Shown here piece after piece: positions 653-56,100 of a stretch of 64,000 nt of DNA; positions within the stretch are counted from its first letter, which is position 1; every line of letters starts with the position of its first letter. This stretch comes from Ruminococcus bicirculans (ex Wegman et al. 2014). GTDB taxonomy: Bacteria; Bacillota; Clostridia; Christensenellales; DTU072. Below the pieces are notes generated by a model, which was not told the origin of the DNA, ran no database searches, and saw only the letters and a list, made by a program, of their open reading frames with translations. The stretch lies in NCBI GenBank assembly GCA_963642145.1, contig CAVIFU010000003.1, positions 6,433 through 70,432 on the forward strand, written 5' to 3'. The position numbers and the translations under genes were made by a program.

Positions 653-687
653 AGGCGAGACGCATAGATTTCTGCATAAAAATGATG

Positions 688-716: not shown

Positions 717-750
717 ATAATATATACGCGTATGCGCGCTACGGAGTTGT

Positions 751-3708: not shown

Positions 3709-3709
3709 T

Positions 3710-4549: not shown

Positions 4550-4559
4550 CGGAGGAAAT

Positions 4560-5885: not shown

Positions 5886-5897
5886 AAGGAGACTAAT

Positions 5898-6704
5898 ATG
5901 AAACTCAACTCAAAAGCGGAAACAGTGCATGGCAAAAAGTCCGTTTACACGGATTTGGTGATATCGGCGCACCAAGACGATATCGAGATTATGTGTCCCC
6001 AAGCGATAATTAAGGGATACCAAAGTAAAGAAAACGGCATGGTTGCCGTAGTTTGTACGGATGGCGCCGGCAGCCCGAGAGCGGGCGAATTTGCCAATAT
6101 GACGGACGAAGAGATGAAGCGCGTTCGCAGAGTAGAGCAGATCCGCGCGGCAGAGGTAGGCGACTATTCCGAGCTCATCATGCTCAACTACACTTCGGCG
6201 GAAATGAAGGATAGGAACAATCCTTCTCCCGTTGAGGACATCAAGGAAATAATACTTAATTACCATCCCGAAACCATGCACATACACAACCTTGCAGACA
6301 AGCATCCGACCCACGTCGGCACGGCGATGGATTGCATCAAAGCGTTGCGCGCGATACCAAAAGAGCTCCGTCCGAAGAAGCTGTACGGATGCGAGGTGTG
6401 GCGCAGTCTGGATTGGTTGGACGACGCCGAGAAGGTAGTGTTTGACCTTACGGGATACGAGAAACTCATGCGCGACGTGCTCGACGTGTACGTCAGCCAA
6501 ATAGCCGGCGGCAAGGCGTATTGCACGGCGTCGATCGGCAGAAGATTTGCAAACGCGACATACTCCGCAAGTCACGGCGTGGACATGTGCGAGCTTGCTT
6601 CCTACGCGATGGATCTCACTCCTCTCATAGAGGACGACGACTTGGATCCGCGCGAATTCATACTCGGCAAAATCAGGAAATTCGAATCGGATTTGCTCAT
6701 ATAA
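5898..6704 (+). CDS. PIG-L / LmbE family N-acetylglucosaminyl deacetylase
   Basis: AGGAG RBS. The motif VISAHQDDIEI (AHxDD, 5967-5981) and downstream His/Asp residues are typical of the PIG-L family. Confidence 0.75.
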   Translation: MKLNSKAETVHGKKSVYTDLVISAHQDDIEIMCPQAIIKGYQSKENGMVAVVCTDGAGSPRAGEFANMTDEEMKRVRRVEQIRAAEVGDYSELIMLNYTSAEMKDRNNPSPVEDIKEIILNYHPETMHIHNLADKHPTHVGTAMDCIKALRAIPKELRPKKLYGCEVWRSLDWLDDAEKVVFDLTGYEKLMRDVLDVYVSQIAGGKAYCTASIGRRFANATYSASHGVDMCELASYAMDLTPLIEDDDLDPREFILGKIRKFESDLLI

Positions 6705-6770
6705 AACGTGGCGTTTCGCGCGGTTCTTACGCGCGTTATATAACCCACGGTTAAATTATCGTAAAACATT

Positions 6771-6799
6771 CGGCGCCCGTTCGGGCGTCGATTTTTTTT
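6771..6799 (+). terminator. Rho-independent terminator of the amino-sugar cassette
   Basis: 8 bp stem CGGCGCCC/GGGCGTCG (one G-U pair), loop GTTC, followed by ATTTTTTTT. Confidence 0.75.
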
Positions 6800-6880
6800 C
6801 ACCGAAAATTCAACCGAAATTCTTTATTCGGGCGTGCGTCGGGCGTAAGCCACAAGATATTGCGGTGATAAGCGAAAACG

Positions 6881-6904
6881 ACCGCTAAAAGCGGTGTTTT
6901 TTTG
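6881..6904 (+). terminator. Second terminator-like hairpin
   Basis: Stem ACCGCT/AGCGGT with a short A-rich loop, followed by GTTTTTTT. Confidence 0.5.
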
Positions 6905-6959
6905 TGTTCGTTGGGTGAAGAACTCTCTATTAGGCGCGTATTAAATATTATATAGGGTA

Positions 6960-6988
6960 TTGACAAACGAAAATCGTTGCCGTAAAAT
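6960..6988 (+). promoter_or_regulatory. sigma-70-type promoter of the giant gene
   Basis: TTGACA (6960-6965), 17 nt spacer, TAAAAT (6983-6988), about 100 nt upstream of the ATG at 7088. Confidence 0.65.
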
Positions 6989-7087
6989 AGTTGCGTAAGC
7001 GGACCGTATCGGTCCCGTTTGCGTATATACGCGCGTGACGCGCTTTGCGAAACGCCCGTAACTCCACCACCTCAAGGAGATTTCGCA

Positions 7088-35425: not shown

Positions 35426-35456
35426 ATAAAGGTACCACGGAGTGGTAAGAGGTTAT

Positions 35457-38400
35457 ATGCATAATAAACGCACCGTAATACCTATTTTATTTGCCGTAAC
35501 GGCGTTTGCGCTCGTATTTGCGCTGACGTTGTGTTCGGGTGTGGGTATTGCTCGGCGCAAAGAATCGGGCGTTTCCCTTGTCGTTGCGGATAGCGAGGAG
35601 GAAGATATATCGTTCGGGCAATACACCTTCAAGCGGACGATGCTCTTGTCGGACGGCACCACTGCTGAGTTTTTCGAGAGCGGAGACGAATATTTCAAGT
35701 ACAGTCACGACGCCGACGGTTACGTTTTGTTACGCGATAACGACGCCTTGACCCTCGAATACGCCGTCAATCAAGACGGCAGACCGGTTTCGTCCGGCGT
35801 TTCTTTTAACGCGTGCGCGCGCGATATAGAGGCTGTCCCCAAAATGACTGCCGGGGATATAGATTTGGAAGCGAATCCGGATTTACTCATATCGTACGAG
35901 GGCGACAATTTGGAAGAAGTGGAGATAGAGCCGTTGTTCGGTTCCGATATGTCCGGCACGATAATCAATCTCGTAATTTACATAACGTTCAAAGACGTTT
36001 CGTTTTCTCCGAGTAGCGAGATAGTCAATATATTTAACGGCGCGAGCAATTCTTTGGAGAGCTATTACCGCGTGATGAGCAATAACGCCGTAACGATTAA
36101 GTCCGTCATGCCGTACGACGGCAGCGCGGTATACGTCTACAAGGACAGCGAAAAGCGCAGTTACTACAATACCGACGGCACCGACCGCAAAAACAAGGAA
36201 GCCACTCTTTTGACAAACGCGATAAGCGCGGCAAAAACGTATTTTTCGGGACTTTCGAGTTACAACCTCGACGTAAACGGCGACGGATATTTGGACAGCC
36301 TGTCATTTGTCGTTGCCGGCGATTCTTCTTCGACGTGGGGTAGCCTGCTATGGCCGCACAGCTGGAATTTGGATACCATAGACGGCGCCGGCAAGTATTC
36401 CTCTTTTACCGGCAAGAACGGGCAAATCGTCAAAGTAGGCAAGTACTCCTTTAACTTTGCTTCCGCCTTGAATACGGGCGTTGTGTGCCACGAAACGGCT
36501 CACGTTTTGGGCGCTCCCGATTTGTATCACTATGAATACGATTTCGTCCCCGTCGGCAAATGGGACTTGATGCAATTTAACCAATCGACTCCGCAATACA
36601 TGCTTACCTATATGCGCGATAAATACATCGGAGGCATATCTTCGAGCGCGATAGAGGATATAAGCGCAAACGGCGTGTATTCCTTGGCTCCGGTAAGCTC
36701 CGCCGCGAGCGGCGTGCTTGCCTACCGCATACCTACCGCACGAACGGGAGAATACTTCATGGTGGAATATCGCAGGGTAACCGCAAGCGGATACGACAGC
36801 GCGTTGTCGGGTAGCGGACTTATCGTCTACAGAGTAAAGGAGCCGAGCGATTATTCGAGCTCGACAGGCAATCAGGAAGCTACTTACAAAGGTACCGGCA
36901 AGTACGCCGACGAGGTATACGTATTCCGTCCGCAGATAACCGTTACCGGCAAGGAGTCATCCGCCCAAAGATACCAAAACAGCAAAAACGACGTCGAGTA
37001 CGCCTATCTTTCGCCGAACAACCCTTATTTTTCGGAGGTCGGCACGACGGACGTTGCCACGCGATACTCGTACGGCAATTTGTTTTTCTCCGACGGCAGC
37101 AATAGCGGTATCGTCATCAAGGCGTTGTCTATAAGCGGCACGAGCCTGGAATTCAGCGTGCACGTTTCATCGGATACGCAGATACCGGACGACTACTTCG
37201 TCAACAAAATTTCCGTCACGCAAGCCGACATAACAAACACTACAGAGTTCGCAGGGGTTACCGCAAACGTGGAATTCGGGTCCCTAAACATATCGTATCT
37301 ATCGGCGTTGGAGCTTGTGCTGACGGACGCAAACGGCGGTATACTCGCAACAAATACCGCCAATACCGGCAAATTGCTGTCGGAATACAAGAGCGGAGCG
37401 CGTAAGTTCGAATGTCGTTTTGTTTACGCCGATAAGGGCAATTCCTTTGACGGCGTGTTCGGCATAGGGGCGTTTTCAGGCACCGCGGTTCCCGCCAAAC
37501 TCACGGTTCGCGCTACCGACGCGGACGGCGACGAGATTACAATAGCCACGGTTGCGGTTACGGATACGTACAACGTAGGTTGGGACACCGTGCTTGCCTC
37601 CAAGACCGAACGTTCGGCGATGATAGCGGCGTCTTCAACCGCAACCATAGGCGTTACGCGTAGCGGTAACGTTGTAGCCGTAGGCGCGATAAGCGGCGTG
37701 AGCACGCTACAAAGTTTAACTAACGCCGTTTCGGCGGCGGTAGGGCTCAGCCATGCGTTGGTGGTCAAGGATAGTCTTACTGTCACCGCGGTAGGTACGG
37801 ACAAGTACGGCGAAACGTCGGTATCTACTTGGAATGACGTAAAGGCAGTAGCCGCCGGAGATTACACATCTTACGGGTTGAGAACGGACGGTACGGTAGT
37901 GGCGGCAGGCGCGAATCAATACGGACAGCTTGCGGTAGACGATTGGACGGAAGTGACGAGTATTTCCGCGCGCGGTCAGCGCGTCGTCGGCATTACCAAA
38001 GAGGGCAAAATCCTATACGCCGGCAATTTCTCGGAGTCGGAAGCGACTGCGTTAAAGTCGATTGGCGGAGCTATCGGAGCTACGTGCGGCGGTAGTTACG
38101 TCGCGGTACTGTTTGCAGACGGCACCGTCGGGACGTACGGCACGTTTGTAGGCGGTGACACGTCCTCTTGGCGCGACGTTACCTCCGTTTCCGCCGGCGA
38201 ATATCATCTTTTGGGGCTCAAAAGCGACGGAAGCGTGTACGCTACCGGCGACAATACCTATAACCAATGTTATGTAAGCAATTTGTGCGACGTCATATAT
38301 TTGGCTGCCGGCGAAAGCCATAGCGCTTTTCTGCGCAAAGACGGCGTTGTGGAGTATCGTGGACTCGATAAGAGCGGATACGGCATAAACGGCGACTTGG

Positions 38401-41400
38401 GTAATTTGATATACAACAGCTACGTTGCCGTCAAATCGATCGGCGGCGTCAGCGTGAACGGCGCAAGCGTAAGCATCGTGCGCGTGCCTCTCGGCGGTAC
38501 GGTCGGCATTGACGTCGTATATTCACCGCAAAGCGTAACCTATGTCAGGATGCTGTTTACTTCCTACGACAGCTCCGTAGCGAGCGTGACGGCAAGCGGA
38601 ACGGATAGCGCAGTCATCGTCGGCAACGGCATAGGTCAAACCATAATCAATATAGTTGAAAACGGCAGTAAGATAAGCAAATCCGTCACGGTGGAAGTCT
38701 ACAAAGAATCTCCGCTCACGGGTATAAAATTTGCGGATTCGACGAAGAGTATTCTCGTAGGGCACAGCGTGCGTTTGGCGGTGGAATTGCTCCCCGCGGA
38801 CGCCGTGTACTACGGCGTAATGCTCTATGAGTCAAGCGCGCCCGATGTAGTCGCCGTCGATTCCGACGGCGTAATTACCGCGTCCTCCGCGGCGGCGGAC
38901 GGCGCCACGGCAACCATCACCGTTACGCTCGGCGAATTCAGCGCGACTTGCCTTGTAACCGTTGCTTCCGGCATCAGCGGCGCGGAAGTCGTGATAGGCG
39001 AGAACGCCAAAATCAAATATCGCTACGGCGAAGAACTCTCCGTGGAAGGCTTGGAACTCAGAGTTACCCTCGGCGACAAAACGGAGACGGCGCACTTCAC
39101 GCGTGACGCGGTCACGGGATACAACCCGACGGACGTCACTTCCAAAGAGCAAACGCTGACGGTGTCTTATTCCGGGATAACAGCCACGTATAGCGTATCC
39201 GTCAGAGACTACGTCGTCGGCATAGAAACGGTATCCGCGCCGCAATCGACATACTTGTATAACGAAGAGTTTGCCACAAGCAGCGGCACATACAGAGTGA
39301 CCTACGCAAGCGGCAAGACGGCGGAAAACAGCTTTTACAGCGGATACGTTCAAGGTTACCGAAAACAATCCATAGGCAAGCAATATTTAAGCTATTCCTA
39401 CACCGATTCGGAGTGGGGAGAAACGTTCTATATATACGATATAGAGGTAGTCGTACTTGACTACGTAAGCGGCATTTCCTATAAACCGGTCAAAGCCGTG
39501 TACGCATATCTGGAGGAATTGGATTCTACCGAGCGCGTCGAACTCACAATGATATCGGGCACGGTGCGTTACGCCTATCTTTCGGAAACGGAAGTCCACG
39601 ACGTAGACAGCCCCGTTGCCGACAAGACGAACGCGTTATACGCGCTGTATTCCGAGCGTACGGGCACGCATAGGCTGGAAGTCAAATATACGGACGCCGC
39701 CAACGACAAGGAACACACAGCCACTGCCGCCGTTGTCGTCAGGATAAGCGGCGAGTGCATTTTGGGCGGTACGGAGACCCTTGCGGACGGCTCCTCCGTG
39801 TACTACTACGAAGTCGGCGATAAGCTTTATATAGACGTCAGAATAGCCCAACAGGGCGTCAACGTCGTCGGCATAGACGACGACAGCTCCAAAGATATCT
39901 ACTATGCGCTGTATACCGCGGACGGATCCGCATTCGACAATACCCAAGCGGGCAAGCAGAGCGCAAGCATCAAAATTTATGTCAACGAGCAAACGATATC
40001 TTCGGGCGGCGTGAGCATAAACACGCAAACGCTACGCGCGATCGTGGTGGATACCTACGGACTTGCCAAGGCTACTGCCGTAAGGATTGCGGACGGATGT
40101 CGCGTCAATTACGACTACGGGCAGGAAATCAACGGAGATTCGCGGCAGGACGTCATGCTTGAATTGACCTTGGCAAGCGGTGACAAAGTGAACGTAGAGC
40201 CGATGGAGATAAGCTACGATATGCGGATAATAGGCACCCAAACCGCGCGATTCAGATACTTAAATACGTGGTTAGAGCTTGATATAGTCATCAACGACGT
40301 CGTAAGCGACATAGCGGCGGACGACGTAAGCGTTGCGTACGGCAACGTGCCCGAAATAAGCGTTTACGCCGTATACAAAGGAGCGGGCAAAGTGGCGTTG
40401 AAGGCATCGGAATACAAGCTTTCCGAATACGATCTCAAAAAGGTAGGCAAGCAAACCGTCACCGTTACGCTCGCGGCGGACGCGACTTATACGACGAGTT
40501 TCACGCTTACCGTTATGGACGGATTCGACAAAATCGAAGTCAAGACCGCGCCCAAAACCTCTTACGCAAAAGGCGAAGATTTCGATCCGACGTCCGAATA
40601 CATCGTCACCACGAATTCGGGTATAACTTATACGGTGTCGTACAATTCGACGGAATTCGAGTACACGCCGGCGTTCGACTCTTCCGCGGTGGGGAGGGGG
40701 CAAAAGATTAGTATTTACTACAAAGGCGCCGGCGGCAGAGTCTTGGCATGGAGCGACGAATGCGTCGTTCCGAACTATGTGGTGTCGCTTACCGTAGTGC
40801 AATCGGCTACCAAACGCGAGTACGGTTACGGGGAAACTTTCGTGACGAAAGTCAACGTAAAGTACGGTGACGGCACGGAAAAGACGCCGTTACTCGAGTC
40901 CGACTACACGACCGACTTCAATTCGCATAAGCTCGGCACGCGAACGGTAACGATAACTTACGTGTACAACGGCATCGCGTACACCGTGAGCGTAGATAAC
41001 GTGCGCGTAAGCGACGTCGTGAACGGCGTCAAGATCAAGAGCAAGCCGACGCTTACCGAATACAATTACGGGCAAACGCTTTCGCTTAGCGGAGCCGTCG
41101 TCGTGGTAACCTATGGCAGTGAAGGAAACGTGACATACAGCGGCAACGAAATAAAAGAGAATTTGGACGTAACCTATTCCACTCTGCAAAAAGGGTATTC
41201 CAAGGTAATCATATCCGTAGGAGGCATGAGCGACAGTTTCCTGATTAAAGTAAACGATTCGAGTGCGGCAATATCCGCAACAAGTGTGGCGAATATATCC
41301 GTCGATGTCAAAAAATTCAGCGTGACGATCAAAGTTTTGCCGGTAACTGTCGGAGAAGTGACCGCTTGCGTCAAGTCGGCGCAATACCTTACCGCCTACA

Positions 41401-41786
41401 TCGTGACGGCGGACGCGGACGTTGAGGCGTCCTCGGCGGAAGACAAAAATATATCTACCGGAGCCAAGCTCATATTCAGGAACGCCGACGGCGTCGAAGT
41501 ATTCGTATTCAACGTTTACGCAAAGGGCGACGCGGACGGCAACGGCGTTATCGATTCCGACGACGCGGAAGCCATTGCCGAGGCAATGACCGCCGGCAAA
41601 TCGGTGTCGGAAGTCGCGGATTATGACGGCGACGGCAGAGTAAATCTTACCGATTTAGTCAATTGGGCAAGGAAAACGGGCGGAGGCGAGCCCAAGAACG
41701 CTCCCGTCAGAGAACTTGCCGAGCTTTGGATAAGCGACGTCAAGCCGCGCAAGACAAAGGAGGATTCCCGAGATGCGCAAGAGTAA
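35457..41786 (+). CDS. Large lipoprotein: HExxH (M6/InhA-like) metalloprotease, RCC1-like beta-propeller, Big_2 and Big_3-like Ig array, C-terminal dockerin
   Basis: ATG 35457 follows AAGAGG; the track ORF starts 5 codons earlier at a GTG. The lipobox is LTLCSG. The zinc motif VVCHETAHVLGAPDLYHY has its HETAH at 36489-36503. RCC1-like repeats span ~37570-38450. Two Big_2-like domains span ~38450-39000. About 9 Big_3-like repeats span ~39000-41200. Confidence 0.85.
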   Translation: MHNKRTVIPILFAVTAFALVFALTLCSGVGIARRKESGVSLVVADSEEEDISFGQYTFKRTMLLSDGTTAEFFESGDEYFKYSHDADGYVLLRDNDALTLEYAVNQDGRPVSSGVSFNACARDIEAVPKMTAGDIDLEANPDLLISYEGDNLEEVEIEPLFGSDMSGTIINLVIYITFKDVSFSPSSEIVNIFNGASNSLESYYRVMSNNAVTIKSVMPYDGSAVYVYKDSEKRSYYNTDGTDRKNKEATLLTNAISAAKTYFSGLSSYNLDVNGDGYLDSLSFVVAGDSSSTWGSLLWPHSWNLDTIDGAGKYSSFTGKNGQIVKVGKYSFNFASALNTGVVCHETAHVLGAPDLYHYEYDFVPVGKWDLMQFNQSTPQYMLTYMRDKYIGGISSSAIEDISANGVYSLAPVSSAASGVLAYRIPTARTGEYFMVEYRRVTASGYDSALSGSGLIVYRVKEPSDYSSSTGNQEATYKGTGKYADEVYVFRPQITVTGKESSAQRYQNSKNDVEYAYLSPNNPYFSEVGTTDVATRYSYGNLFFSDGSNSGIVIKALSISGTSLEFSVHVSSDTQIPDDYFVNKISVTQADITNTTEFAGVTANVEFGSLNISYLSALELVLTDANGGILATNTANTGKLLSEYKSGARKFECRFVYADKGNSFDGVFGIGAFSGTAVPAKLTVRATDADGDEITIATVAVTDTYNVGWDTVLASKTERSAMIAASSTATIGVTRSGNVVAVGAISGVSTLQSLTNAVSAAVGLSHALVVKDSLTVTAVGTDKYGETSVSTWNDVKAVAAGDYTSYGLRTDGTVVAAGANQYGQLAVDDWTEVTSISARGQRVVGITKEGKILYAGNFSESEATALKSIGGAIGATCGGSYVAVLFADGTVGTYGTFVGGDTSSWRDVTSVSAGEYHLLGLKSDGSVYATGDNTYNQCYVSNLCDVIYLAAGESHSAFLRKDGVVEYRGLDKSGYGINGDLGNLIYNSYVAVKSIGGVSVNGASVSIVRVPLGGTVGIDVVYSPQSVTYVRMLFTSYDSSVASVTASGTDSAVIVGNGIGQTIINIVENGSKISKSVTVEVYKESPLTGIKFADSTKSILVGHSVRLAVELLPADAVYYGVMLYESSAPDVVAVDSDGVITASSAAADGATATITVTLGEFSATCLVTVASGISGAEVVIGENAKIKYRYGEELSVEGLELRVTLGDKTETAHFTRDAVTGYNPTDVTSKEQTLTVSYSGITATYSVSVRDYVVGIETVSAPQSTYLYNEEFATSSGTYRVTYASGKTAENSFYSGYVQGYRKQSIGKQYLSYSYTDSEWGETFYIYDIEVVVLDYVSGISYKPVKAVYAYLEELDSTERVELTMISGTVRYAYLSETEVHDVDSPVADKTNALYALYSERTGTHRLEVKYTDAANDKEHTATAAVVVRISGECILGGTETLADGSSVYYYEVGDKLYIDVRIAQQGVNVVGIDDDSSKDIYYALYTADGSAFDNTQAGKQSASIKIYVNEQTISSGGVSINTQTLRAIVVDTYGLAKATAVRIADGCRVNYDYGQEINGDSRQDVMLELTLASGDKVNVEPMEISYDMRIIGTQTARFRYLNTWLELDIVINDVVSDIAADDVSVAYGNVPEISVYAVYKGAGKVALKASEYKLSEYDLKKVGKQTVTVTLAADATYTTSFTLTVMDGFDKIEVKTAPKTSYAKGEDFDPTSEYIVTTNSGITYTVSYNSTEFEYTPAFDSSAVGRGQKISIYYKGAGGRVLAWSDECVVPNYVVSLTVVQSATKREYGYGETFVTKVNVKYGDGTEKTPLLESDYTTDFNSHKLGTRTVTITYVYNGIAYTVSVDNVRVSDVVNGVKIKSKPTLTEYNYGQTLSLSGAVVVVTYGSEGNVTYSGNEIKENLDVTYSTLQKGYSKVIISVGGMSDSFLIKVNDSSAAISATSVANISVDVKKFSVTIKVLPVTVGEVTACVKSAQYLTAYIVTADADVEASSAEDKNISTGAKLIFRNADGVEVFVFNVYAKGDADGNGVIDSDDAEAIAEAMTAGKSVSEVADYDGDGRVNLTDLVNWARKTGGGEPKNAPVRELAELWISDVKPRKTKEDSRDAQE
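37570..38450 (+). other. RCC1-like repeat (beta-propeller) region
   Basis: Repeated blades such as VKAVAAGDYTSYGLRTDGTVVAAGANQYGQL, VTSVSAGEYHLLGLKSDGSVYATGDNTYNQC and VIYLAAGESHSAFLRKDGVVEYRG. Confidence 0.7.
41520..41680 (+). other. Dockerin (type I-like) module
   Basis: Two EF-hand-like Ca-binding loops each followed by a helix: GDADGNGVIDSDDAEAIAEAM and ADYDGDGRVNLTDLVNWARK. Confidence 0.8.
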
Positions 41787-42492
41787 GATAATCATAGCCG
41801 TATCGGTACTTTTCGCGTTGGCGGTGACGCTTTTTGCGGGGTGCTCCTCCACAACCGTAAGCTCGATAGCCATTGCGCAAGGCTCATTCAAAGAAGTGTA
41901 TGCGTTGGACGAAGTGCCGGACTATTCGCGCGCGCAACTCGTAGTGACTTATACGGACGGCAAACAAGCCAACGTTCGCATTACCGAGGACATGGTCAGC
42001 GGACTTTCCACAAGCAAGACGGTAACGGGCGCCACGCTCACCGTAACATACAAAGGCTTCAAGGCGACATTCATGTACAGGGTAAGCGGTAGCGTAAACG
42101 TAGATACGTCGGTAAGGCTCAAGACCGAGATTGCCGAAACCGTAGACGGGCGCAATGCGGTCAAAGTCAAAATATACGGCATCGAGCAGGACGGAATAGG
42201 CGTGTACGCCGTTAAGTTCACCCTTAGCGGAGTCGGCGGAGTGGTGCTTGACGAGCCGACGCCAATAGGCGGCGACGTGTACAAAACCAAATGGACGCGC
42301 ATATCGGACAACACCGTGAACGTAGTCGTCTACTCCGTCACGGGGTACGATTCGTTTACCGAGGGTGCCGAAATAACTTGCGTTTGGGCAACCTTAACGC
42401 TGAATCAAGGTAGCCTAAACATACAATCCATAACGATATCGGACGGCACGAGAGATTATGTCGTCCCGGGTTCGACAATAAAATTTGCGTAG
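41773..42492 (+). CDS. Small lipoprotein with one Big_3-like domain and a C-terminal cohesin-like module
   Basis: AAGGAGG RBS at 41757-41763, and the ATG overlaps the upstream gene by 14 nt. The lipobox is LFAGCSS. The C-terminal ~130 aa has a cohesin-like pattern (VKVKIYGIEQDGIGVYAVKFTLSGVGGVV ... GAEITCVWATLTL ... ITISDG). The cohesin call is made by eye only. Confidence 0.6.
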   Translation: MRKSKIIIAVSVLFALAVTLFAGCSSTTVSSIAIAQGSFKEVYALDEVPDYSRAQLVVTYTDGKQANVRITEDMVSGLSTSKTVTGATLTVTYKGFKATFMYRVSGSVNVDTSVRLKTEIAETVDGRNAVKVKIYGIEQDGIGVYAVKFTLSGVGGVVLDEPTPIGGDVYKTKWTRISDNTVNVVVYSVTGYDSFTEGAEITCVWATLTLNQGSLNIQSITISDGTRDYVVPGSTIKFA

Positions 42493-42500
42493 GAGGTAAT

Positions 42501-43976
42501 ATGATACCGATAGTTCCGAAACCGGTGAAAGCCGAAATCACGGGTCCTTCCGAGTATCTTTACACGGAAGATGACATTAAGTATGTGCAGGATCCGACGG
42601 TTCCCGCAAGCGGATACCGTCTGAGCGTAGGCAAGGACGGCGTTACCGTGCGTTCTTCCGACGATGACGGCGCGTTTTACGGCAGAATGACCGTGCGCGA
42701 ATGGCTGTCCGAGGACAAAAAGCTTACCGATCTCGAAATATACGATTATCCGCGATACGCGCACAGGGGTTTCATGCTCGATTGCGCGAGGCACTTTTTC
42801 GGGATAGACGTCGTCAAGCGCATTTTGGACATCATCGCCATACTCAAATTCAACGTCTTCCATTGGCACCTTACGGACGACCAAGGGTGGAGAATGCAGG
42901 TTGATAAGTATCCTTTGCTCACCGAGATAGGCAGCAAGCGTACCGCGACGCGCGGAGACGGCAAACCCGTGCAAGGCTACTACACCAAAGCGGAAATGAA
43001 GGAGGTTGTGAAGTACGCCAAGGCTTTGCACATAGACGTCATGCCGGAGATAGATCTCCCGGGGCATATGGCGGCGGCTATCGCGGCGTATCCGTATCTT
43101 AGCTGTACCGGCGAGCAAATCGCCGTCAAGGAGAGTTTCGGCATCCACAAAGAGGTGCTTTGCCCGGGCAAAGAGAGCGTCTACGAGTTTGTCGAGGGCG
43201 TTTTGAAAGAGGCGTTCGAGATATTCCCGTACAAGTACATCCACTTGGGCGGTGACGAGGCTTTGCGTATAAATTGGATAAATTGCGAGGATTGTCAAAG
43301 GGTAATGGCGGAGAACGGCTTAAAGGACGAAGACGAACTGCAAGCCTACTTCATGGGCAAAATCAACGAATTTTGCAACAAAAACGGCAAAACAGTCATC
43401 AATTGGAACGACGGCATGGTGGGAGAAAACGTCGCGGACAACATCATGGTGCACTATTGGCAAGAATCCGACGTCAACAGGCGCGTTGCCGTCAGGGAAA
43501 TAAACAAAGGTAAGGGCGGTATAATTTCGCCGTTCGGCTCGTATTACCTTGACTATCCGCACGGCATGACTCCGCTCAAAAAGACGTTTGACTTCAATCC
43601 GGAGCTTCCGGGCGTAACGCGCAAGGACTGCATACTCGGCATAGAGGCGCCGCTCTGGGCGGAATACGTTGAGAGCGAAAATGATATTTACAAGAGGATA
43701 TTCCCGAGATTGCTCGCCGTTGCCGAAAGGGCATGGAGCCCGTGGCATACGGACTACAAGGATTTTAAGGCGCGCGCGGAGCAATGTTGCAAGATGTTTG
43801 ACAACAAGGGTATAGTTTGTGATACAATCAGTAAAGCCGATCCGTCGCTTATAGGCAGGGCGGTAGGCACAATCGCATTCGGACTCAACGCGTTGGACAA
43901 GACTCTTGCGGAGAGTGGCAAACGCATCAAGCTCAATCAAAAGATGCTTGACAAAAAATACGGCAAAAAGAGGTAG
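42501..43976 (+). CDS. GH20 beta-N-acetylhexosaminidase (no signal peptide seen)
   Basis: AGGAGG RBS. GH20 motifs are present: YPRYAHRGFMLDCARHFF, FNVFHWHLTDDQGWR, and the catalytic HLGGDE (~43244-43261). Confidence 0.9.
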   Translation: MIPIVPKPVKAEITGPSEYLYTEDDIKYVQDPTVPASGYRLSVGKDGVTVRSSDDDGAFYGRMTVREWLSEDKKLTDLEIYDYPRYAHRGFMLDCARHFFGIDVVKRILDIIAILKFNVFHWHLTDDQGWRMQVDKYPLLTEIGSKRTATRGDGKPVQGYYTKAEMKEVVKYAKALHIDVMPEIDLPGHMAAAIAAYPYLSCTGEQIAVKESFGIHKEVLCPGKESVYEFVEGVLKEAFEIFPYKYIHLGGDEALRINWINCEDCQRVMAENGLKDEDELQAYFMGKINEFCNKNGKTVINWNDGMVGENVADNIMVHYWQESDVNRRVAVREINKGKGGIISPFGSYYLDYPHGMTPLKKTFDFNPELPGVTRKDCILGIEAPLWAEYVESENDIYKRIFPRLLAVAERAWSPWHTDYKDFKARAEQCCKMFDNKGIVCDTISKADPSLIGRAVGTIAFGLNALDKTLAESGKRIKLNQKMLDKKYGKKR

Positions 43977-43977
43977 T

Positions 43978-46662
43978 ATGGATTCGTTTTACACAAAACC
44001 GTCGGAAGAAGTTCTGACAAACCTCGGTTCTTCCGCGGAAGGATTGAGTGAAGAGGAAGCGCGAAAAAGATTATCCGAGCACGGCGCAAACGCGCTTAAA
44101 GAGGGCAAGAAACGCCCTCTTATCCTCAAATTCTTTGACCAATTCAAAGACGTCATGATTATAGTTTTGCTCGTGGCGGCTGTAGTGTCGGGCGTTATTT
44201 CCGTTGTACGTAAGGAATACTCTGATCTCATAGATTCAGGGCTGATATTGCTCATAGTCATTGTCAACGCCATAATCGGACTCGTGCAGGAGAATAAGGC
44301 GGAGAAATCGCTCGAAGCCCTCAAAAATTTGAATAAGCAGTCGGCTAAGGTCATGCGCAACGGCAAGCTCGAAAGGATCAAGAGCGAAGACATCGTTCCC
44401 GGCGATATCGTTGTTTTGGAAGCCGGCGACATCGTCCCTGCTGATATGCGGTTGCTTACGGCGGCAAGTTTGAAGATAGAAGAATCCGCTTTGACCGGCG
44501 AAAGCGTCCCCGTAGACAAAACGACGGAGCCGTTGACTGACGAGAACGCCCCCCTCGGCGACAGAGTATGTATGGCATATTCTTCCGGTGTGGTGTCGTT
44601 CGGACACGGTACCGGCGTGGTAGTGGCAACGGGTATGAATACGGAAGTGGGCAAGATTGCCGAAATGCTTTCGGAAGATACCGATTCCGATACTCCTCTC
44701 CAAAAACAGCTTGCGAAAACGGCAAAGGTGCTGAGCATAGCGGTTTTGGCGATAGCGGCGGTGATATTTATCGCGTCGCTCATCACGGGCATAGTTACGC
44801 ATAACGATATTCTCGATACCGTCGTAGACGGATTCATGACGGCGGTAGCCATAGCCGTTGCCGCGATACCGGAAGGACTGCCGGCGGTAGTTACCATAGT
44901 ACTTTCCATAGGCGTCAAGAGTATGAGCGAACGTAACGCCATAGTCAAGAACCTCCCGGCGGTGGAAACGCTCGGTTGCTGTGAAGTTATTTGTTCGGAC
45001 AAGACCGGCACGCTTACGCTCAACCAAATGACCGTCAAAGAGCTGTATACCGCCGACAAAGGCGTCTATACGGCGGAAGACGCGGTTACGGGCAGTGCCG
45101 ACGTGCTGCGCAGAGGCATGTGCCTGTGCAACGATACCATCGTCAACGGCGAGAAGCTTTTGGGAGATCCCACCGAGACGGCGCTTATAGCTTATTCGCG
45201 CAAGAGCGGTGGCGGAGATCCGCGCGAAAAGTATCCGCGCCTCGACGAAATTCCGTTTGACAGCAAACGCAAACTGATGTCTACCCTCAACGACGTTGAC
45301 GGAGAACATGTTCTAAACGTAAAAGGCGCTCCGGATATACTCATAGAAAGGTGCGTCAACATACTCGACGGCGACGTCGTTCGCCCGATAACGGACGACG
45401 ACAAACGCGCCATAACCTCAGCCAACAGCGCAATGGCGGTCAAAGCGCTAAGGGTGCTTGCCGTTGCCATGAGGGACGAAACGCAAGACAAAGAGGCGTT
45501 TGAGAAAGATTTGACGTTTGTCGGCTTGGTAGGCATGATAGATCCGCCTCGTGCGGAAGTCAAAGACGCCGTTGCTACCTGCAAAAAAGCGGGTATGCGC
45601 GCCATAATGATTACCGGTGACCATGCGGTTACCGCCGGCGCCATTGCCAAGGAAGTGGGCATTTTGTACGCTCCCGAGCACAAGATAATTACCGGCGCGG
45701 AACTCGATAAGCTATCGGACGAAGAGTACCTTGCGCACATAGACGAATACCGCGTTTACGCAAGAGTCAGCCCCGAGAACAAAGTGCGCATAGTCAAAGC
45801 GTACCGTTCGCTCGGCAAGGTTGTCGCCATGACCGGCGACGGCGTAAACGACGCTCCGAGCATCAAGGCGGCGGATATCGGCGTAGGCATGGGCATTACC
45901 GGAACCGACGTCAGCAAGGGCGCAAGCGACATGGTTTTGGCAGACGATAACTTTGCCACCATCGTTTCTGCTGTAGAAGAAGGCAGAAAGGTATACTCCA
46001 ATATCAAAAAAGCCATACAGTATCTGCTATCTGCCAATATTGCGGAAGTGCTTTGCCTGTTTATAACGGTCATAGTGCTTTCCACCATCGCCAAACAATC
46101 CGTCATATTCCTTACTCCCGTAATGATACTTTGGGTAAACCTCGTTACGGACAGTCTGCCGGCGCTTGCCCTCGGTATGGAAAAAGCCGAATCGGACGTC
46201 ATGAACTATCCGCCGCGCAAGACGGACACCAGTTTGTTTGCGGGTAAGACGGGCAAAGACATCATCATACAGGGCATCATGCAGACGGCTCTCGTTATGG
46301 GCTCATTCCTATGCGGTTACCTCTATTTCGAGAAGTTGCCGGGTGCCGGACACGAAGTTTCCGAGACCATGGCGTTCGTAACGCTTTGCGTGATACAGCT
46401 CTTCCACGCCTACAACATGAAGTCGCAGAATAATTCGATATTCAACAAAAAGATACTCGATAACAAACTTTTGAATATCTCGTTTATCGTGGGATTTGCG
46501 CTTGTGGTGCTTGCGGTTGCCATCCCGGGAGTGGGCGAATCTCTGTTCGGAACCAAACCTCTCGACGGCGTACAATGGGCGGTATCGCTCGGATTCGCGA
46601 TTGCGGTAATACCGTTTGTCGAACTCCAAAAACTGATAGAAAGGAAGCTTGCTAAAAAATAA
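43978..46662 (+). CDS. Calcium-translocating P-type (P2A/P2B-like) ATPase
   Basis: ATG 43978 follows AAAGAGG; the track ORF start at 43906 overlaps GH20. Motifs are TGES, CSDKTGTLT (44998-45012 encode DKTGT), IPEGLPAV in TM4, MITGDH and VAMTGDGVNDAPS. Confidence 0.9.
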   Translation: MDSFYTKPSEEVLTNLGSSAEGLSEEEARKRLSEHGANALKEGKKRPLILKFFDQFKDVMIIVLLVAAVVSGVISVVRKEYSDLIDSGLILLIVIVNAIIGLVQENKAEKSLEALKNLNKQSAKVMRNGKLERIKSEDIVPGDIVVLEAGDIVPADMRLLTAASLKIEESALTGESVPVDKTTEPLTDENAPLGDRVCMAYSSGVVSFGHGTGVVVATGMNTEVGKIAEMLSEDTDSDTPLQKQLAKTAKVLSIAVLAIAAVIFIASLITGIVTHNDILDTVVDGFMTAVAIAVAAIPEGLPAVVTIVLSIGVKSMSERNAIVKNLPAVETLGCCEVICSDKTGTLTLNQMTVKELYTADKGVYTAEDAVTGSADVLRRGMCLCNDTIVNGEKLLGDPTETALIAYSRKSGGGDPREKYPRLDEIPFDSKRKLMSTLNDVDGEHVLNVKGAPDILIERCVNILDGDVVRPITDDDKRAITSANSAMAVKALRVLAVAMRDETQDKEAFEKDLTFVGLVGMIDPPRAEVKDAVATCKKAGMRAIMITGDHAVTAGAIAKEVGILYAPEHKIITGAELDKLSDEEYLAHIDEYRVYARVSPENKVRIVKAYRSLGKVVAMTGDGVNDAPSIKAADIGVGMGITGTDVSKGASDMVLADDNFATIVSAVEEGRKVYSNIKKAIQYLLSANIAEVLCLFITVIVLSTIAKQSVIFLTPVMILWVNLVTDSLPALALGMEKAESDVMNYPPRKTDTSLFAGKTGKDIIIQGIMQTALVMGSFLCGYLYFEKLPGAGHEVSETMAFVTLCVIQLFHAYNMKSQNNSIFNKKILDNKLLNISFIVGFALVVLAVAIPGVGESLFGTKPLDGVQWAVSLGFAIAVIPFVELQKLIERKLAKK

Positions 46663-48344
46663 TGGGACTTAAAGTACTTATGCCTAACGCGATCTGGCAG
46701 GGCTATGACGCGACTACCGAACCTCTCGACGCCGAAACGCTGTATTCCAAAAGACCGGAGGACGGCGTCAAGGAAGACGTGTGGCGTTACACCGCCGTAT
46801 ACAGGGAGGACGGCAAAGTAAGGGTTATGACGCGCGTTATTCGCGCGGAAGACAGTCAAACGGCTGATTCCCCCGCGATTTTGCTTGTAGGGGAATATCA
46901 TCGTCCCCCGGACGACGCCTTTGTCATGAGCCTTGCAAAAGCCGGTTACACGGTTGTCGTGCCCGATCTGAGTTGTGTTTCCAAAAGCGAAAGAACTATT
47001 TTTCCGCCGTCGCTTGCTTACGGCGAATACGCTAAGTCCGGCGAGCATTTATATAAAGTGACTGAAACGGCAAAGGATACCTGCCAGTACCTGTACTCCG
47101 TGATGGTCAAACGCACGGAAGTCTTTGTCAAGAAGCATATTTCGAGCGGCAAACTCATTATGGTAGGTATGGGCGACGCGGTGGAAGTCGCGATGCAGGT
47201 AATGGGCTCAGGCGGTATTGCCGACGCTCTCGCATGCGTCAACGGTTCCGGATATCGCGAGTACATCAAGCGCAACAGGTACGGCGCGCGTTCGGAAGAA
47301 ACGCTCATTATGGATGACGAACGCATGTGCTGGCTGACGGGCATAGCCTCCATAGCTTACGCCAAAAACGTCAAGGTTCCCACCTTTATAGCCATAGGCA
47401 GTAACGCGCATCGCAGCGACGCCGACAGGCTCTCCAACCTATGCGCCTTGCTCGGGACGGACGAAGTGACTACCGTCATCAGTCCGCGCGCCGGCGACTT
47501 TATGTTGCCGGAGGCGTATACGAGTTTGCTTATTTGGCTGCATGCGGTGTCCGTCGGCGAAGCCTCGATGCTCCCGTCCGTTCCGGAACTCAAAATAGAG
47601 GTCAAGGAAGACGGACGTCCGCATTTGGAAGCGGTTTGCGATCCGTGTTCGATGATTAAACGCGTGACGTTCTACTACGCGATCAAGTCTTATAACCACG
47701 AGGTCAGGGATTGGCGCGAGATGGAAGGGCTTTCGGTTTCGCACAACGAGTACATGGCAACGCTAACCAATTATGACGAAAACGAGCCGCTGTTTGCCTT
47801 TGCGGAAGCCGAGTACGAGAACGGATTCACGATAACCTCTCTCATAGAATACGCCGAGCTCAAAGGACTTAACGTCCGTCCGTCCAAGGCGGCGTTCGGC
47901 GACGTCGTGGTAGTCTATCGGGCAGGCGGTGACGAGAGCGGCTTTGTAGCCGACTATGACGGCGACGTACTGATGGATAAGGACATCAGGACGGTGACGA
48001 CGCCTAAGGGTATGGAAGGCGTCGTATCCGAATGCGGAGGACTCAGAACATACCACTTTTTTGCCGGCGCCGACGCAAGTTCGGATAAGCTGTTGCAAAT
48101 AGATTTTTACGCCGAACACGACGTGGACGTCCGCGTTTCGGTGATGGGAGATACCGATGACGGCACAAGGACATATTGCGCAAATATCAAGATTGGGGAC
48201 ACTAACGGCTACTTTTCGGACACCAAATTCGCGCTTACGGATTTCAAAGACGAAACAATGCGTTCCCCCGCAAGTTGGTCCAAAATCAAAGTTATATCCA
48301 TACACGGCGACGGACTCGTAATAGGGAGTATATTGTTTATATGA
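46662..48344 (+). CDS. Hypothetical protein with an N-terminal alpha/beta-hydrolase-like region and a C-terminal beta-rich region
   Basis: The ATG overlaps the ATPase stop (TAATG). Weak resemblance to esterase/dienelactone-hydrolase folds. No clear GxSxG motif (GMGDA sits at the candidate elbow). Confidence 0.5.
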   Translation: MGLKVLMPNAIWQGYDATTEPLDAETLYSKRPEDGVKEDVWRYTAVYREDGKVRVMTRVIRAEDSQTADSPAILLVGEYHRPPDDAFVMSLAKAGYTVVVPDLSCVSKSERTIFPPSLAYGEYAKSGEHLYKVTETAKDTCQYLYSVMVKRTEVFVKKHISSGKLIMVGMGDAVEVAMQVMGSGGIADALACVNGSGYREYIKRNRYGARSEETLIMDDERMCWLTGIASIAYAKNVKVPTFIAIGSNAHRSDADRLSNLCALLGTDEVTTVISPRAGDFMLPEAYTSLLIWLHAVSVGEASMLPSVPELKIEVKEDGRPHLEAVCDPCSMIKRVTFYYAIKSYNHEVRDWREMEGLSVSHNEYMATLTNYDENEPLFAFAEAEYENGFTITSLIEYAELKGLNVRPSKAAFGDVVVVYRAGGDESGFVADYDGDVLMDKDIRTVTTPKGMEGVVSECGGLRTYHFFAGADASSDKLLQIDFYAEHDVDVRVSVMGDTDDGTRTYCANIKIGDTNGYFSDTKFALTDFKDETMRSPASWSKIKVISIHGDGLVIGSILFI

Positions 48345-48922
48345 CGACCAAGCGCAGAATAATTACAATAATAGTAGACATAGTGATTTTGGCGTGCATA
48401 GTAGTGGGCGCGTTCTATCTGTCCAACTACCTGTTCGGCACCATACCCATCGAAGGACCTTCCATGGAAACTACCGTCCATGACGGCGACGTCGTCTTGT
48501 ACTACAAGCAAGGCACGTATAAGCGCGGCGACATAATCGTATTCAACACCCATCAACTCAACGATTCGGGCGTGGAAAGACTGTTTATCAAGAGGATAAT
48601 CGCGCTCGGCGGAGATACGGTTGAAATCAAACAATACGAGGACGGCGAATACTACATTTATGTGAATGGCGAAAGGCAGACGGAAGACTATTTGCCCGAC
48701 AACGTGCCCAACGCGCGCGAAAGGGACGCTTTGCAGAGTTCTTACGTAGTCGTGCCGGAAGGTTGCTTTTATTATTGCGGCGATAACCGCTTGAATTCCA
48801 GCGATTCGCGCACCGGGACCGACGTTTTCGGCAGAATTGACTCCATCCTCGGCAGAGCCGTAATGCGTTACAAAAAAGACGGATTGATTATAAGCGATTT
48901 GGAATTACTTAAACGTCCGTAA
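48341..48922 (+). CDS. lepB: Signal peptidase I
   Basis: ATG 48341 overlaps the upstream stop (ATGA). It has an N-terminal TM helix, GPSME (catalytic Ser), KRIIALGGDTV (Lys box) and GDNRLNSSDSR. Confidence 0.9.
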   Translation: MTTKRRIITIIVDIVILACIVVGAFYLSNYLFGTIPIEGPSMETTVHDGDVVLYYKQGTYKRGDIIVFNTHQLNDSGVERLFIKRIIALGGDTVEIKQYEDGEYYIYVNGERQTEDYLPDNVPNARERDALQSSYVVVPEGCFYYCGDNRLNSSDSRTGTDVFGRIDSILGRAVMRYKKDGLIISDLELLKRP

Positions 48923-53166: not shown

Positions 53167-56100
53167 ATGTCGAACGATAAATTTGCACAAACACCCAACA
53201 AACTTTGCAGAGCGTCAATCGCGTTTACTGCGGTTGTAATACTCGTTGCGGCGGCTATTTGTTTAGCCGCGCTCGTTCCGTTGCCGCGCGCCGTCCCGGC
53301 GGAAGCCGCCATGATCGACGGCGGGTCGGAAGTCAAAAACGGCGAGATAAACGATTACAGTCGAGACGTCGTGGTTACGGGCGCTTCCGTTTCGCTCAAA
53401 GGTTCCGATTCGGTTACCGCGAGCGCCGGTAGGGACGCAACCGCTACCGTGAGCATAACGCGCCAAGCCACGATTACTTTCGGCGACAAAATCAAGAAGG
53501 CTCTTTCTACGGGTAAACTTGCCGTCAAAGTGGTGGTAAGCGGTACGCACGTCGTAACGGTGGACAGCGGCAAGCTCGGCGACGGGTCGGACTCAACTTA
53601 TGAGATATTCGGGGAATTCGTCGGTAGCGGTTCTCTCTCGGAGGCGGCGGCATTTACGGACGCGTCCGAAGAAAGCGAAGGAACGGAGCAGTCGAACGGC
53701 AACATAAACAAGACGTTTACCGACGTCGAACTTGACGTCACGAGCGGCGTGGCGGGGTACGGCAGTTTTTCTTTCACATACACGGTAGAATACGTGGCGA
53801 TAAGTGAGGCGGCGAGCGCCGAGCAAGCCACGGCGAGCATATCGGTCGATTCCACCGTTGCGATAAACGTCAAACTTGAATTTGCAGAGGGCGCGGTTAC
53901 GGTAACGGCGCAAGGCGGCGGTAGCGTATCGACGGGCGACGACGTTCTCATAAGCGACAGCGATACCGAGCGCACCAAGTCTTGCAAAATAGCTTTCAAT
54001 GACCCTCTTGCGTTCAAAGCGGAGGCTTCCGCCGGCTATTACTTTGCGGGATGGCGCCTCTCTTCCCAAGATATTCGCTCCGACAAAACGGCGACTTTCG
54101 GCACGACGGAAGAGCCCATAGAATACGGCTATCAGATTGCCGACGACATATCGGTGACCGCGATATTCCACAAAATAGAACTTGACGGCGCCGGCGAAAG
54201 CTATGTCTATGACGCGCTGGAAACGGGCGTCGGACCGCGCATCAAAGCCTCCCTCGGCAACAGTTACGACGTCGTTGACATATATTCCGGCACGACCAAT
54301 GCCGGCGTTCAAGTAGACGGCGTTACCGGCAAACCGAGGCAAGCCGGCAGTTATACCCACAAAGGTTACATGTATTACAAGGGCACCGCGGAAGAGGACC
54401 GTAGCGACAAAACCCTCGTAGGCTACATAGAAACCGCATACGTGATAGAGCGCAACGTGCCTACCGTCACGCGTGCGGACGGTAACCTCACGGAGATTAC
54501 GATTAACTACGGCGGCACTTTGGGCGACATAGATCTCACGTGCACCGCGACAAACAGCTTAAACGTCGGCGAGAAGGTAAACGGCACCGTGTCCGTTCTC
54601 CTCAACGAAGTCGTTGCGGATAGAACAAAACTTTTGCCTGCCGACGCAAAAGGCGTAGACTACGTCATCAGATTCACGCCCGAAGACGGCTATAACTACG
54701 CCGTTGCGGACATGAAAGTTAAAATTTACGTTCCCGACTACTTCAAACTGAGCGTCATAAACGGCGACGACTCCTTGCGCACGGCGAAGATTATCAAGTC
54801 GGAAACATCGACGGTTGACGCGAGCGTGTCCAACAATAAAGGCGAAACCGCGCTCACGCGCGAGGTCGTCAAAATATCCTTGCGCGCAACGATGACCGAT
54901 GACAGCGGAAGGTACTTTTTCATCGGTTGGCGTATAGGCTTGCCCGATTCGGACTCCACGCACTATACGTATCTCACCGCCGGAGCGGAAAACGGACTTG
55001 CATATGATTACTACATCCCCTCGGTAGGCGACGTCATGGGTACGGACGCCGACGGCAATACCACGTATTACACTCAAGAAGACATAGAAAGGTATACGCG
55101 GGCGGAGTTTGTGGCGGTATTCGTGCGCGACACGACAGCCGGAGATTCGGACGAAATAAGCGTCGCCTATACGGGTGGCAGTCTCACCAAACAAGCGACA
55201 TTCAGCCCGGAGAACGCCGGTTACGGCTTCGCGCCGACGGGCGTGGAATATTACGACGAAAACGACGTTCTTTTGACGAGCGCGCCTTCCGCGATAGGCA
55301 CTTACAAGATTAAGTACTCCGTCAGAAATACCGAACTCGGCGAGGTAGTCGGCAATCGCGAGATAAAATACGTCATCGCCAAGGCGGCGGTCAACGCCAC
55401 AATCAACACCGTAAGGTCCGAGGGCGACGGCAGTTATAACCGCGAGATCGGTTGGGCGAAAAGGATGTATTACACCGTTTCCGTCACTAACGTTTTGTCG
55501 GGCGCGATCTCTAAGTACTACTACAAAACCGGCGACGGCGAATGGACGGAGATAGAGGGCGACATAGCCAAACGAACCGGTTGCGCCATAACTTTCGTCA
55601 GCCCCGAATCGGCAACATCGTACGTGAGCACTTTCGTCTTCAAGGCGGAAGACGCGAACGGTAACGTCGTTGCGGAGACCGTCGGCGACGGCGCCGAGTG
55701 CAAAATAGACGTAAGCACACCGGGAATTAAAGAAGTGCGCGTATCGGATTCGAGCGGCAATACTTATAGCGGCGGTTGGCAAAACACATATGTGAGATAC
55801 GCGCTGGACGTCACTTACGGCGGTAGCGGAGCCGTTATTTCGGTTAAGTACGGCGATACCGGCAGTTGGAAGACGTTGAGTCTAACCGATATAGGCTATT
55901 CTTCCGGCAAAGAAGTAGCTATCGTTTCGCGCACGGTAACATTTGACATCGGCGATGAATTCAACGGCAACGTGTACGTAAAAATCGGCAACGGCGTAGG
56001 CGTCGAAAACGAATCGCGCACGGTGTTTTCCGTAAGCATAGACAAAACTCCCGCCGTTCTCGGCTCAGGCACTCGGAACAAAAACCTGAACGCCAACGGC

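Follow-up and report, generated by a model that had tools for sequence, protein, structure and literature searches.

The window analysed here is a stretch of 64,000 nucleotides (nt; 64 kb) from Ruminococcus bicirculans (assembly GCA_963642145.1, contig CAVIFU010000003.1, positions 6,433 to 70,432 of the forward strand). It contains two overlapping genes, which encode a giant secreted metalloprotease ending in a dockerin and a small lipoprotein whose C-terminal domain is concluded, from sequence profiles and a predicted structure, to be a divergent cohesin. Coordinates are positions in the window, and all features described below lie on the + strand.

The protease gene extends from an ATG at 35457 to 41786 and encodes 2,109 amino acids (aa) according to the open reading frame (ORF) list and its translation; an alternative GTG start at 35442 would give an ORF of 2,114 aa. 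Its product is a secreted multidomain metalloprotease of the M6 (InhA-like) family, as indicated by the NCBIfam domain TIGR03296, which covers residues 178-464 (35973..36833) with 120.7 bits, above its cutoff of 110.8, together with the zinc motif HETAH at 36489-36503; the homologues match PF05547, and HExxH is present in every homologous locus with a full-length protease gene. The catalytic domain is followed by an RCC1-like beta-propeller region (37611..38267; Pfam RCC1_2 at E 1.4e-20, WD40_RLD) and by a long stalk of immunoglobulin (Ig)-like domains of the Big_2/Big_3 type (38718..41252; Pfam Big_2, Big-like and Big_3 in four stretches), whose count and boundaries are approximate. Full-length homologues in public data form about 65 clusters (P0035-P0100) of 2,020-2,180 aa that reach down to 29% identity, and their hosts are all uncultured gut Clostridia carrying Christensenellaceae, Candidatus Stercoripulliclostridium or Clostridia/Eubacteriales labels. 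The N-termini of these homologues are basic and then hydrophobic, as is characteristic of signal sequences, and in many of them the hydrophobic segment has no obvious AXA cleavage site. The corresponding segment of the window protease (MHNKRTVIPILFAVTAFALVFALTLCSG...; 35457..35560) reads LTL-C, in which Leu at -1 means that there is no lipobox, and the Cys is variable, being absent or shifted in most of the approximately 65 homologues. A preliminary description of this DNA had taken the protease itself for a lipoprotein; this assignment is ruled out, and judged by its sequence the N-terminus is an ordinary signal peptide or a signal anchor.

The lipoprotein gene (41773..42492; 239 aa by the ORF list and translation) begins inside the 3' end of the protease gene. 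Its ATG at 41773 is preceded, 9 nt upstream, by the Shine-Dalgarno sequence AAGGAGG (41757..41763), also located within the protease gene, and the two genes share 14 nt (41773..41786) that end with the protease stop codon TAA (41784-41786); the earlier description of this overlap and of a separate AAGGAGG for the downstream gene is exact. The encoded signal peptide (41773..41844), MRKSK-IIIAVSVLFALAVT-LFAG-C24, comprises a basic n-region, a hydrophobic h-region and a lipobox; MRKSKIIIAVSVLFALAVTLFAG-C24 conforms to the usual pattern of lipoprotein signals, a lipobox is found in every full-length family member, and Cys24 is invariant in the family alignment, in agreement with the previous assignment of the product as a 239-aa lipoprotein. 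Residues ~28-105 (41854..42087) constitute an Ig-like spacer domain of the Big_3 type, which scores 15.1 bits with Pfam Big_3, below threshold, and which matches the N-terminal domain of the Bacteroides surface proteins 4fd0/4fdw by sequence (E 1e-6) and 4fd0 by Foldseek at a root-mean-square deviation (rmsd) of 2.1 Å. This domain had previously been regarded as a copy of the Big_3 repeat of the protease; the two do belong to the same Ig-like class, but the best match between them covers 47 aa at 40% identity (E 0.014), which makes the domain a distant relative and not a copy. The lipoprotein ends with ...GSTIKFA, without LPXTG or a hydrophobic tail.

The dockerin at the protease C-terminus

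The last part of the protease comprises a conserved beta-rich module (41253..41522), a dockerin into which this module runs directly (41523..41684), and a post-dockerin tail of ~33 residues (EPKNAPVRELAELWISDVKPRKTKE...; 41685..41783). Two loops of 12 residues each, rich in Asp, Asn and Gly, can be read directly from the dockerin sequence, namely Ca2+ loop 1, DADGNGVIDSDD (41529-41564), and Ca2+ loop 2, DYDGDGRVNLTD (41619-41654), the second followed by the highly conserved helix LVNWARK. Their spacing of 30 residues agrees with the EF-hand-like tandem loops of dockerins (repeats of ~22-30 residues), and the AlphaFold2 (AF2) model places a helix after each loop. When the whole 2,114-aa ORF is searched, Pfam Dockerin_1 (PF00404) scores 20.7 bits (E 4.7e-4), just under its gathering cutoff of 22.9; the last 115 aa of the protease alone score 25.4 bits and exceed it, and 24 of the 34 homologous protease C-termini match the same model. 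A word-indexed search with a 109-aa query comprising the dockerin and the tail returned no matches. A profile built from the family of C-termini, compared with the PDB, retrieves the solved dockerins 6kg9, 2y3n, 1ohz, 2ccl, 1daq and 2vn5_B at E 1e-7 to 1e-5.

The predicted structure leads to the same assignment. For the last 200 aa of the protease, the AF2 model has a mean predicted local distance difference test score (pLDDT) of 88, about 95 over model residues 11-160 and above 90 in the dockerin part, with a predicted template modelling score of 0.73. The best PDB match of this model in Foldseek is the Clostridium acetobutylicum dockerin CaDoc0917 (6kg9 at probability 0.99 and a template modelling (TM) score of 0.63; 6kgd_B at TM 0.67), and the weak E-value of 0.09 that accompanies the fold match is caused by the small size of the domain. 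A genuine dockerin at the protease C-terminus, as the preliminary description had proposed from its two loops, is confirmed at the level of sequence and predicted fold.

The beta-rich module and the dockerin are predicted as one rigid unit, which is reminiscent of X-dockerin dyads. The module carries the conserved motif ...TGDK..F.N..G..VF.F.VY.KGD and has no convincing fold match in the PDB, as its best non-dockerin Foldseek matches stay below a probability of 0.4; going by the model, it may represent a new type of X module. The dockerin repeats themselves are asymmetric: repeat 2 (LTDLVNWARK) has a mean entropy of ~1.2 bits, versus ~2.3 bits for repeat 1, and the two have only the Ca2+ ligands in common, with positions 10/11 reading S-D in the first and L-T, residues 2064 and 2065, in the second. 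The near-identical recognition residues and internal two-fold symmetry of type I dockerins are not found in the protease dockerin. A dual binding mode is typical of enzyme-borne type I dockerins (PMC5429695). The roughly twofold stronger conservation of repeat 2 suggests, by contrast, that the protease dockerin has a single binding mode, mediated mainly by the conserved repeat 2. Beyond the dockerin, the tail is kept in most lineages, although P0065-67, P0074 and P0078-79 lack it; the model shows it as largely disordered (pLDDT 55-78), with a short helix at model residues 175-182, and might serve as a second contact with the lipoprotein or as a sorting signal. Its motif reads roughly P-x-x-x-P-[VL]-N-x-x-A-x-x-F-[IV]-x-D-…-K-K-E-E.

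The C-terminal domain of the lipoprotein

Residues 107-239 of the lipoprotein (133 aa; 42091..42489) form the domain that was expected, from its strand pattern, to resemble a cohesin, and both structure prediction and profile comparison strengthen this expectation. In the AF2 model computed on the lipoprotein family alignment, which has a mean pLDDT of 82 and reaches ~88-92 in this domain, the C-terminal half is all-beta. The fold agrees with the flattened beta-sandwich (jelly-roll) of cohesins. In Foldseek, the highest ranks are taken by non-cellulosomal Clostridium perfringens cohesins (2jh2, 2vo8, 2o4e and 2w1n; E 1e-7 to 1e-5, TM 0.72-0.76, rmsd ~3 Å over ~129 columns), with 2jh2 as the best match at E 1.4e-7, TM 0.75 and an rmsd of 2.9 Å over 129 columns; behind them come cellulosomal cohesins of types I and III and archaeal cohesins (6kgd_A, 5nrk_A, 2xdh, 4ums and 2vn5_A), and the other beta-sandwiches matched have TM scores of 0.1-0.3 and rmsd values above 10 Å. 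At the sequence level, a profile of 26 family members matches the NagJ cohesin in the PDB (2jh2, 2w1n, 2o4e and 2ozn) with E-values between 2.1e-6 and 3.5e-6, the alignment spanning positions 5-123 of 136 and so nearly the entire domain, and one of these entries, 2ozn, is a chain of a solved cohesin-dockerin complex. The same profile matches the NanJ cohesin 2vo8 at E 0.046. The significance of the NagJ match is reached only with the 26-member profile, as PDB searches with a single sequence and with a profile of eight sequences gave no better than E 0.5. Near-invariant positions of the cohesin domain are R115, F149, G191, G225, D228 and P232.

Standard family models are largely silent on this domain. 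Pfam Cohesin (PF00963) does not match the window lipoprotein at E<=1 or the isolated domain at E<=10, it matches one of the 26 members of the cohesin family (E 0.0024), and NCBIfam yields no cohesin match on the lipoprotein. The absence of a cohesin hidden Markov model (HMM) or fold match had been named in advance as an outcome that would speak against the proposal; the result is divided, since PF00963 is silent and the fold search and family profile are positive, and because of these positive matches the silence of Pfam is not taken as a refutation. The sequence profiles and the model lead to the conclusion that this is a genuine, though divergent, cohesin, whose nearest relatives are the 'X82' cohesins through which the toxin complexes of C. 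perfringens are assembled (background in PMC12997984).

The family to which the lipoprotein belongs is small. Nine relatives were obtained by word-indexed search. When 1.84 billion representative proteins were scanned exhaustively with HMMER, 27 matched at E<=1e-3 (~27 clusters at 50% identity), nearly all of them lipoproteins of ~240 aa with the same architecture. Four hits of the exhaustive search, P0020 (a eukaryotic Ig protein), P0029, P0031 and P0034 (a TPS-domain protein), gave partial or repetitive matches and were judged spurious.

Conservation of the gene pair and a proposed tether model

The gene neighbourhood of homologues was compared in 21 fetched loci, which were seeded either from the lipoprotein (L001-L012 and L017) or from the protease (L013-L016 and L018-L021) and extend down to ~30% identity; these represent ~19 distinct loci, as L002/L003 are duplicates and L001/L006 are near-identical, and one locus of the set was added by a metagenome scan. 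In all 21, a dockerin-ended protein of ~2,000-2,270 aa is encoded directly upstream of a cohesin lipoprotein. The two genes overlap by 4-14 nt in most loci, whereas two loci have small gaps of 1 and 26 nt and one has a gap of 50 nt. In L013, a contig from a JGI metagenome, the two coding sequences are joined in frame into one ORF of 2,343 aa (535-7566, protein P0021), in which a hydrophobic stretch, KRRK and a lipoprotein signal peptide (…MVGMVAC) stand between the dockerin and the Ig/cohesin part; a true fusion, a start at an internal TTG and an error in the sequence are the possible explanations. L013 retains the pair even though other genes (aminotransferase, RecX) lie downstream of it, and across the loci the upstream neighbours of the pair vary, a giant gene being present in some of them only. 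Within the window, a six-frame translation searched with the HMMs of both families contains exactly one dockerin and one cohesin, and neither module was found by family HMMs or Pfam in the neighbouring proteins of 9,432 and 3,038 aa.

The reading regarded as probable is that the locus encodes a dedicated cohesin-dockerin pair, consisting of one enzyme and one anchor, which tethers the C-terminus of the protease at the membrane. A self-contained tether pair had already been put forward in the preliminary description, and computational support for it now comes from the cohesin fold, the profile homology, the dockerin, the strict pairing in 21 of 21 loci, the fused ORF and the one-to-one occurrence in the window, next to the observed lipobox and gene overlap. 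In this model, the protease would be exported by means of its N-terminal signal sequence, presumably with cleavage of the signal peptide, and the unit of X module and dockerin at its C-terminus would fold around two Ca2+ ions, which would make the interaction Ca2+-dependent. The lipoprotein would be translated from the ribosome-binding site inside the 3' end of the protease gene and become lipid-anchored on the outer face of the cytoplasmic membrane, where one cohesin would be displayed at the end of a spacer made of one Ig domain; because the reading frames overlap, the two proteins would tend to be made at the same site and in roughly equal amounts. The cohesin would then bind the dockerin non-covalently, probably mainly through repeat 2 and in a single mode, so that the protease would be held by its C-terminus and its Ig stalk would project the propeller and the M6 domain outward. 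The resulting topology would be that of a sortase-anchored surface protein, reached without sortase or surface-layer homology (SLH) domains.

Several points weigh against the tether model. Pfam does not recognise the cohesin, as described above, and the census of dockerins and cohesins covered the 64-kb window, so that others may be present elsewhere in the genome. If the N-terminal hydrophobic segment stays uncleaved, the protease is already membrane-bound and the tether must have a different purpose. Moreover, a lipoprotein lies beneath the cell wall, and reaching the outside would depend on the assumed length of the Ig stalk.

The same 64-kb coverage leaves room for a more open network, in which the cohesin of the lipoprotein anchors several dockerin proteins encoded elsewhere in the genome, the dockerin of the protease uses another scaffoldin, or both, and the adjacency of the two genes reflects co-regulation only. 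Precedent favours such a network, as a cohesin in cellulosomes, amylosomes, mucinolysomes or C. perfringens commonly has more than one dockerin to serve, and peptidases that bear a dockerin dock onto scaffoldins with multiple cohesins (PMC12997984). It is nevertheless considered unlikely here: the pair stays adjacent in every locus despite changing neighbours, mostly with an overlap and once as a fusion; the cohesin family is essentially confined to the lipoprotein architecture in the exhaustive HMM search; and no further dockerin or cohesin is found in the window, including its two giant neighbouring proteins.

Adjacent and co-translated genes are also typical of protease-inhibitor pairs. Small beta-barrel inhibitors, for example, are encoded beside serralysins or staphopains, and the beta-sandwich of the lipoprotein could accordingly be something other than a dockerin receptor, such as a membrane-bound inhibitor, an immunity protein, a maturation chaperone, or a glycan- or host-binding module. 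Beta-sandwiches are functionally versatile, Pfam Cohesin does not match this one, and its binding to the dockerin is itself a presumption, all of which would be compatible with such a role. On the other hand, its best fold and sequence matches are proven dockerin-binding cohesins and not inhibitors or carbohydrate-binding modules, the universally conserved dockerin at the protease C-terminus would otherwise have no explanation, and a lipid-anchored domain on a short spacer would sit far from the catalytic domain, which is ~1,700 residues away from the dockerin; a role of this kind is thus judged very unlikely. Equally improbable is a double tether or oligomerisation, options close to those named in the preliminary description, in which an uncleaved N-terminal signal anchor holds the protease and docking bends the distal end of the enzyme back to the membrane or links neighbouring molecules into a surface lattice, for despite the missing AXA site in many homologues and a second hydrophobic segment after the dockerin in P0021, the protease has no lipobox, the signal peptidase I gene conserved in the cluster is compatible with cleavage, and a lipoprotein with a single cohesin cannot cross-link alone.

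These explanations account less well than the tether model for the strictness of the pairing, for the specific homology of the cohesin and for a dockerin that is universal at the protease C-terminus. Since the protease lacks a lipobox, the pair more probably serves as the main C-terminal anchor of the enzyme than as a device that holds its distal end back at the membrane.

Surrounding genes, significance and comparison with known systems

The pair is followed by a GH20 hexosaminidase gene (42501-43976; E 1.9e-101), a P-type Ca2+-ATPase gene (about 43906-46662; the PMCA-type model TIGR01517 scores 526.7 bits against a cutoff of 507, with PMR1/SERCA models near), a gene for a 560-aa protein (46662-48344) that has no match in the scan with family models, and a signal peptidase I gene (about 48275-48922; TIGR02227, E 4.5e-31). 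This downstream gene order (42501..48922) recurs in L001-L003, L014, L015 and L018-L021. The hexosaminidase and the 560-aa protein have no signal peptides and are probably cytoplasmic, which is odd beside the surface proteins of the cluster. The Ca2+-ATPase is kept two genes downstream of the dockerin in L001-L003, L014, L019 and L020, and it would be pure speculation that it supplies local Ca2+ for the dockerin. Signal peptidase I is kept at the end of the cluster in L001-L003, L015, L018 and L021, and may be a dedicated processing enzyme for giant secreted proteins without obvious AXA sites.

Two giant genes flank this region. Upstream of the protease, an ORF of 9,432 codons (7019-35317) has almost no Pfam matches (one CarboxypepD_reg, one Big_4); after an internal Met it reads MKKSLLYKSVLALLIVSLALVLFAC, a lipoprotein signal, on which basis the product may be a lipoprotein of ~9,400 aa. 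Homologues of similarly giant size (8,988 to 9,953 aa) are encoded ahead of the protease in L001, L014 and L019, and not in L002, L015, L018 and L021. Further downstream, an ORF of 3,038 aa (53167-62283) encodes a very large surface protein with an N-terminal transmembrane segment and no Pfam match at E<=0.001.

Taken as a whole, the conserved cluster could be read as a full set of genes by which Christensenellaceae-like gut Clostridia display giant proteins at their surface without sortase, using an anchor that is switchable by Ca2+ or chelators, although this extended reading is unlikely. In such a pathway, the dedicated signal peptidase would free the N-terminus of the protease, the Ca2+ pump would supply the dockerin-folding ions at the membrane surface, and the translationally coupled lipoprotein would capture the emerging X-dockerin unit; the protease could then be set free from this anchor in response to a signal.

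Cohesin-dockerin pairs are best known from cellulosomes and, more recently, from amylosomes, mucinolysomes and clostridial toxin complexes. The locus described here would reduce this plug-and-socket arrangement to its minimum, with one enzyme and one lipid-anchored socket encoded by two overlapping genes in poorly studied Clostridia of the animal and human gut. The docking principle itself is already known, and the locus is a minimal variant of it; what appears new is a divergent cohesin subfamily, invisible to the standard HMM, that is carried by a lipoprotein and whose gene is consistently paired, one to one, with that of a giant M6 protease ending in a dockerin. If the predicted binding is true, lipoprotein anchoring would be a further way, beside SLH domains and sortase, of attaching dockerin proteins to the cell, the existence of a cohesin subfamily that standard HMMs miss would mean that cohesin-dockerin censuses of gut metagenomes under-count, and a small orthogonal cohesin-dockerin pair would become available for the engineering of protein display. 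At the same time, the pair offers a handle on the surface presentation of a 2,100-aa protease from the M6 family, which has been linked to the degradation of host proteins.

Cohesin-dockerin systems outside cellulosomes are well established, for instance in the toxin complexes of C. perfringens, the amylosomes of Ruminococcus bromii and the mucinolysomes of Limousia, and thousands of metagenome-assembled genomes from the gut carry both cohesin and dockerin modules, dockerin-bearing peptidases being among them (PMC12997984). A literature search for lipoprotein-anchored cohesins or for Christensenellaceae cohesin-dockerin systems found nothing specific; its coverage was incomplete and the result is absence of evidence only.

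The closest known counterparts of the window cohesin by fold and profile are the NagJ and NanJ cohesins of C. perfringens, from toxin complexes that also involve the NagH dockerin (2jh2, 2o4e, 2vo8, 2w1n and the complex 2ozn). They resemble it in having a single cohesin per protein, in a non-cellulolytic, gut-associated setting and in partners that degrade host glycans or proteins (PMC12997984). In contrast, the C. perfringens cohesins are located on secreted glycoside hydrolases and join enzymes together, whereas the window cohesin is carried by a small non-catalytic lipoprotein and its partner is a protease from the overlapping upstream gene. The pre-dockerin module of C. perfringens is a helical FIVAR. 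The window pair falls outside the X82-cohesin/FIVAR-dockerin class, as its cohesin carrier lacks a catalytic domain, its own pre-dockerin module is beta-rich in the AF2 model, and Pfam detects no FIVAR. A more distant structural neighbour is the cohesin 2xdh of Archaeoglobus fulgidus (Foldseek rank 16), which ranks below the C. perfringens cohesins in similarity. The archaeal example is a stand-alone, non-cellulosomal cohesin-dockerin system outside polysaccharide degradation, with a different architecture and no lipid anchor.

Dockerin-bearing peptidases of cellulosomes and mucinolysomes are likewise proteases of gut anaerobes with a C-terminal dockerin (PMC12997984). Elsewhere, these peptidases are minor clients of multi-cohesin scaffoldins, whereas the window peptidase is a 2,100-aa protein with M6, RCC1 and Ig-stalk parts that would possess its own private cohesin.

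With regard to function, the nearest analogues are the anchoring scaffoldins, such as SdbA/OlpB with SLH domains and ScaE or Limousia cSca5 with sortase motifs, in which a cell-bound cohesin similarly captures the dockerin of an extracellular assembly; in the examples known so far, such proteins are attached to the cell by SLH domains or by sortase signals (PMC5817068; PMC12997984). No LPXTG motif occurs in the two giant neighbouring ORFs scanned, and no SLH domain is detected by Pfam in the window proteins scanned, including the lipoprotein. The anchor in the window is instead a Cys acylated at a lipobox, its client is a single enzyme and not a scaffoldin, and the relation is apparently one gene to one gene; on its sequence features and modelled fold, the lipoprotein is predicted to work like an anchoring scaffoldin that stands outside the SLH- and sortase-anchored families. 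In its overall layout, the protease is comparable to the sortase/LPXTG-anchored surface enzymes of Gram-positive bacteria, which equally combine an N-terminal functional domain, an Ig stalk and a C-terminal anchor. The difference is in the attachment, which is covalent and to peptidoglycan in the sortase-anchored enzymes, whereas in the window it would be non-covalent and Ca2+-dependent and would lead to the membrane through a second protein.

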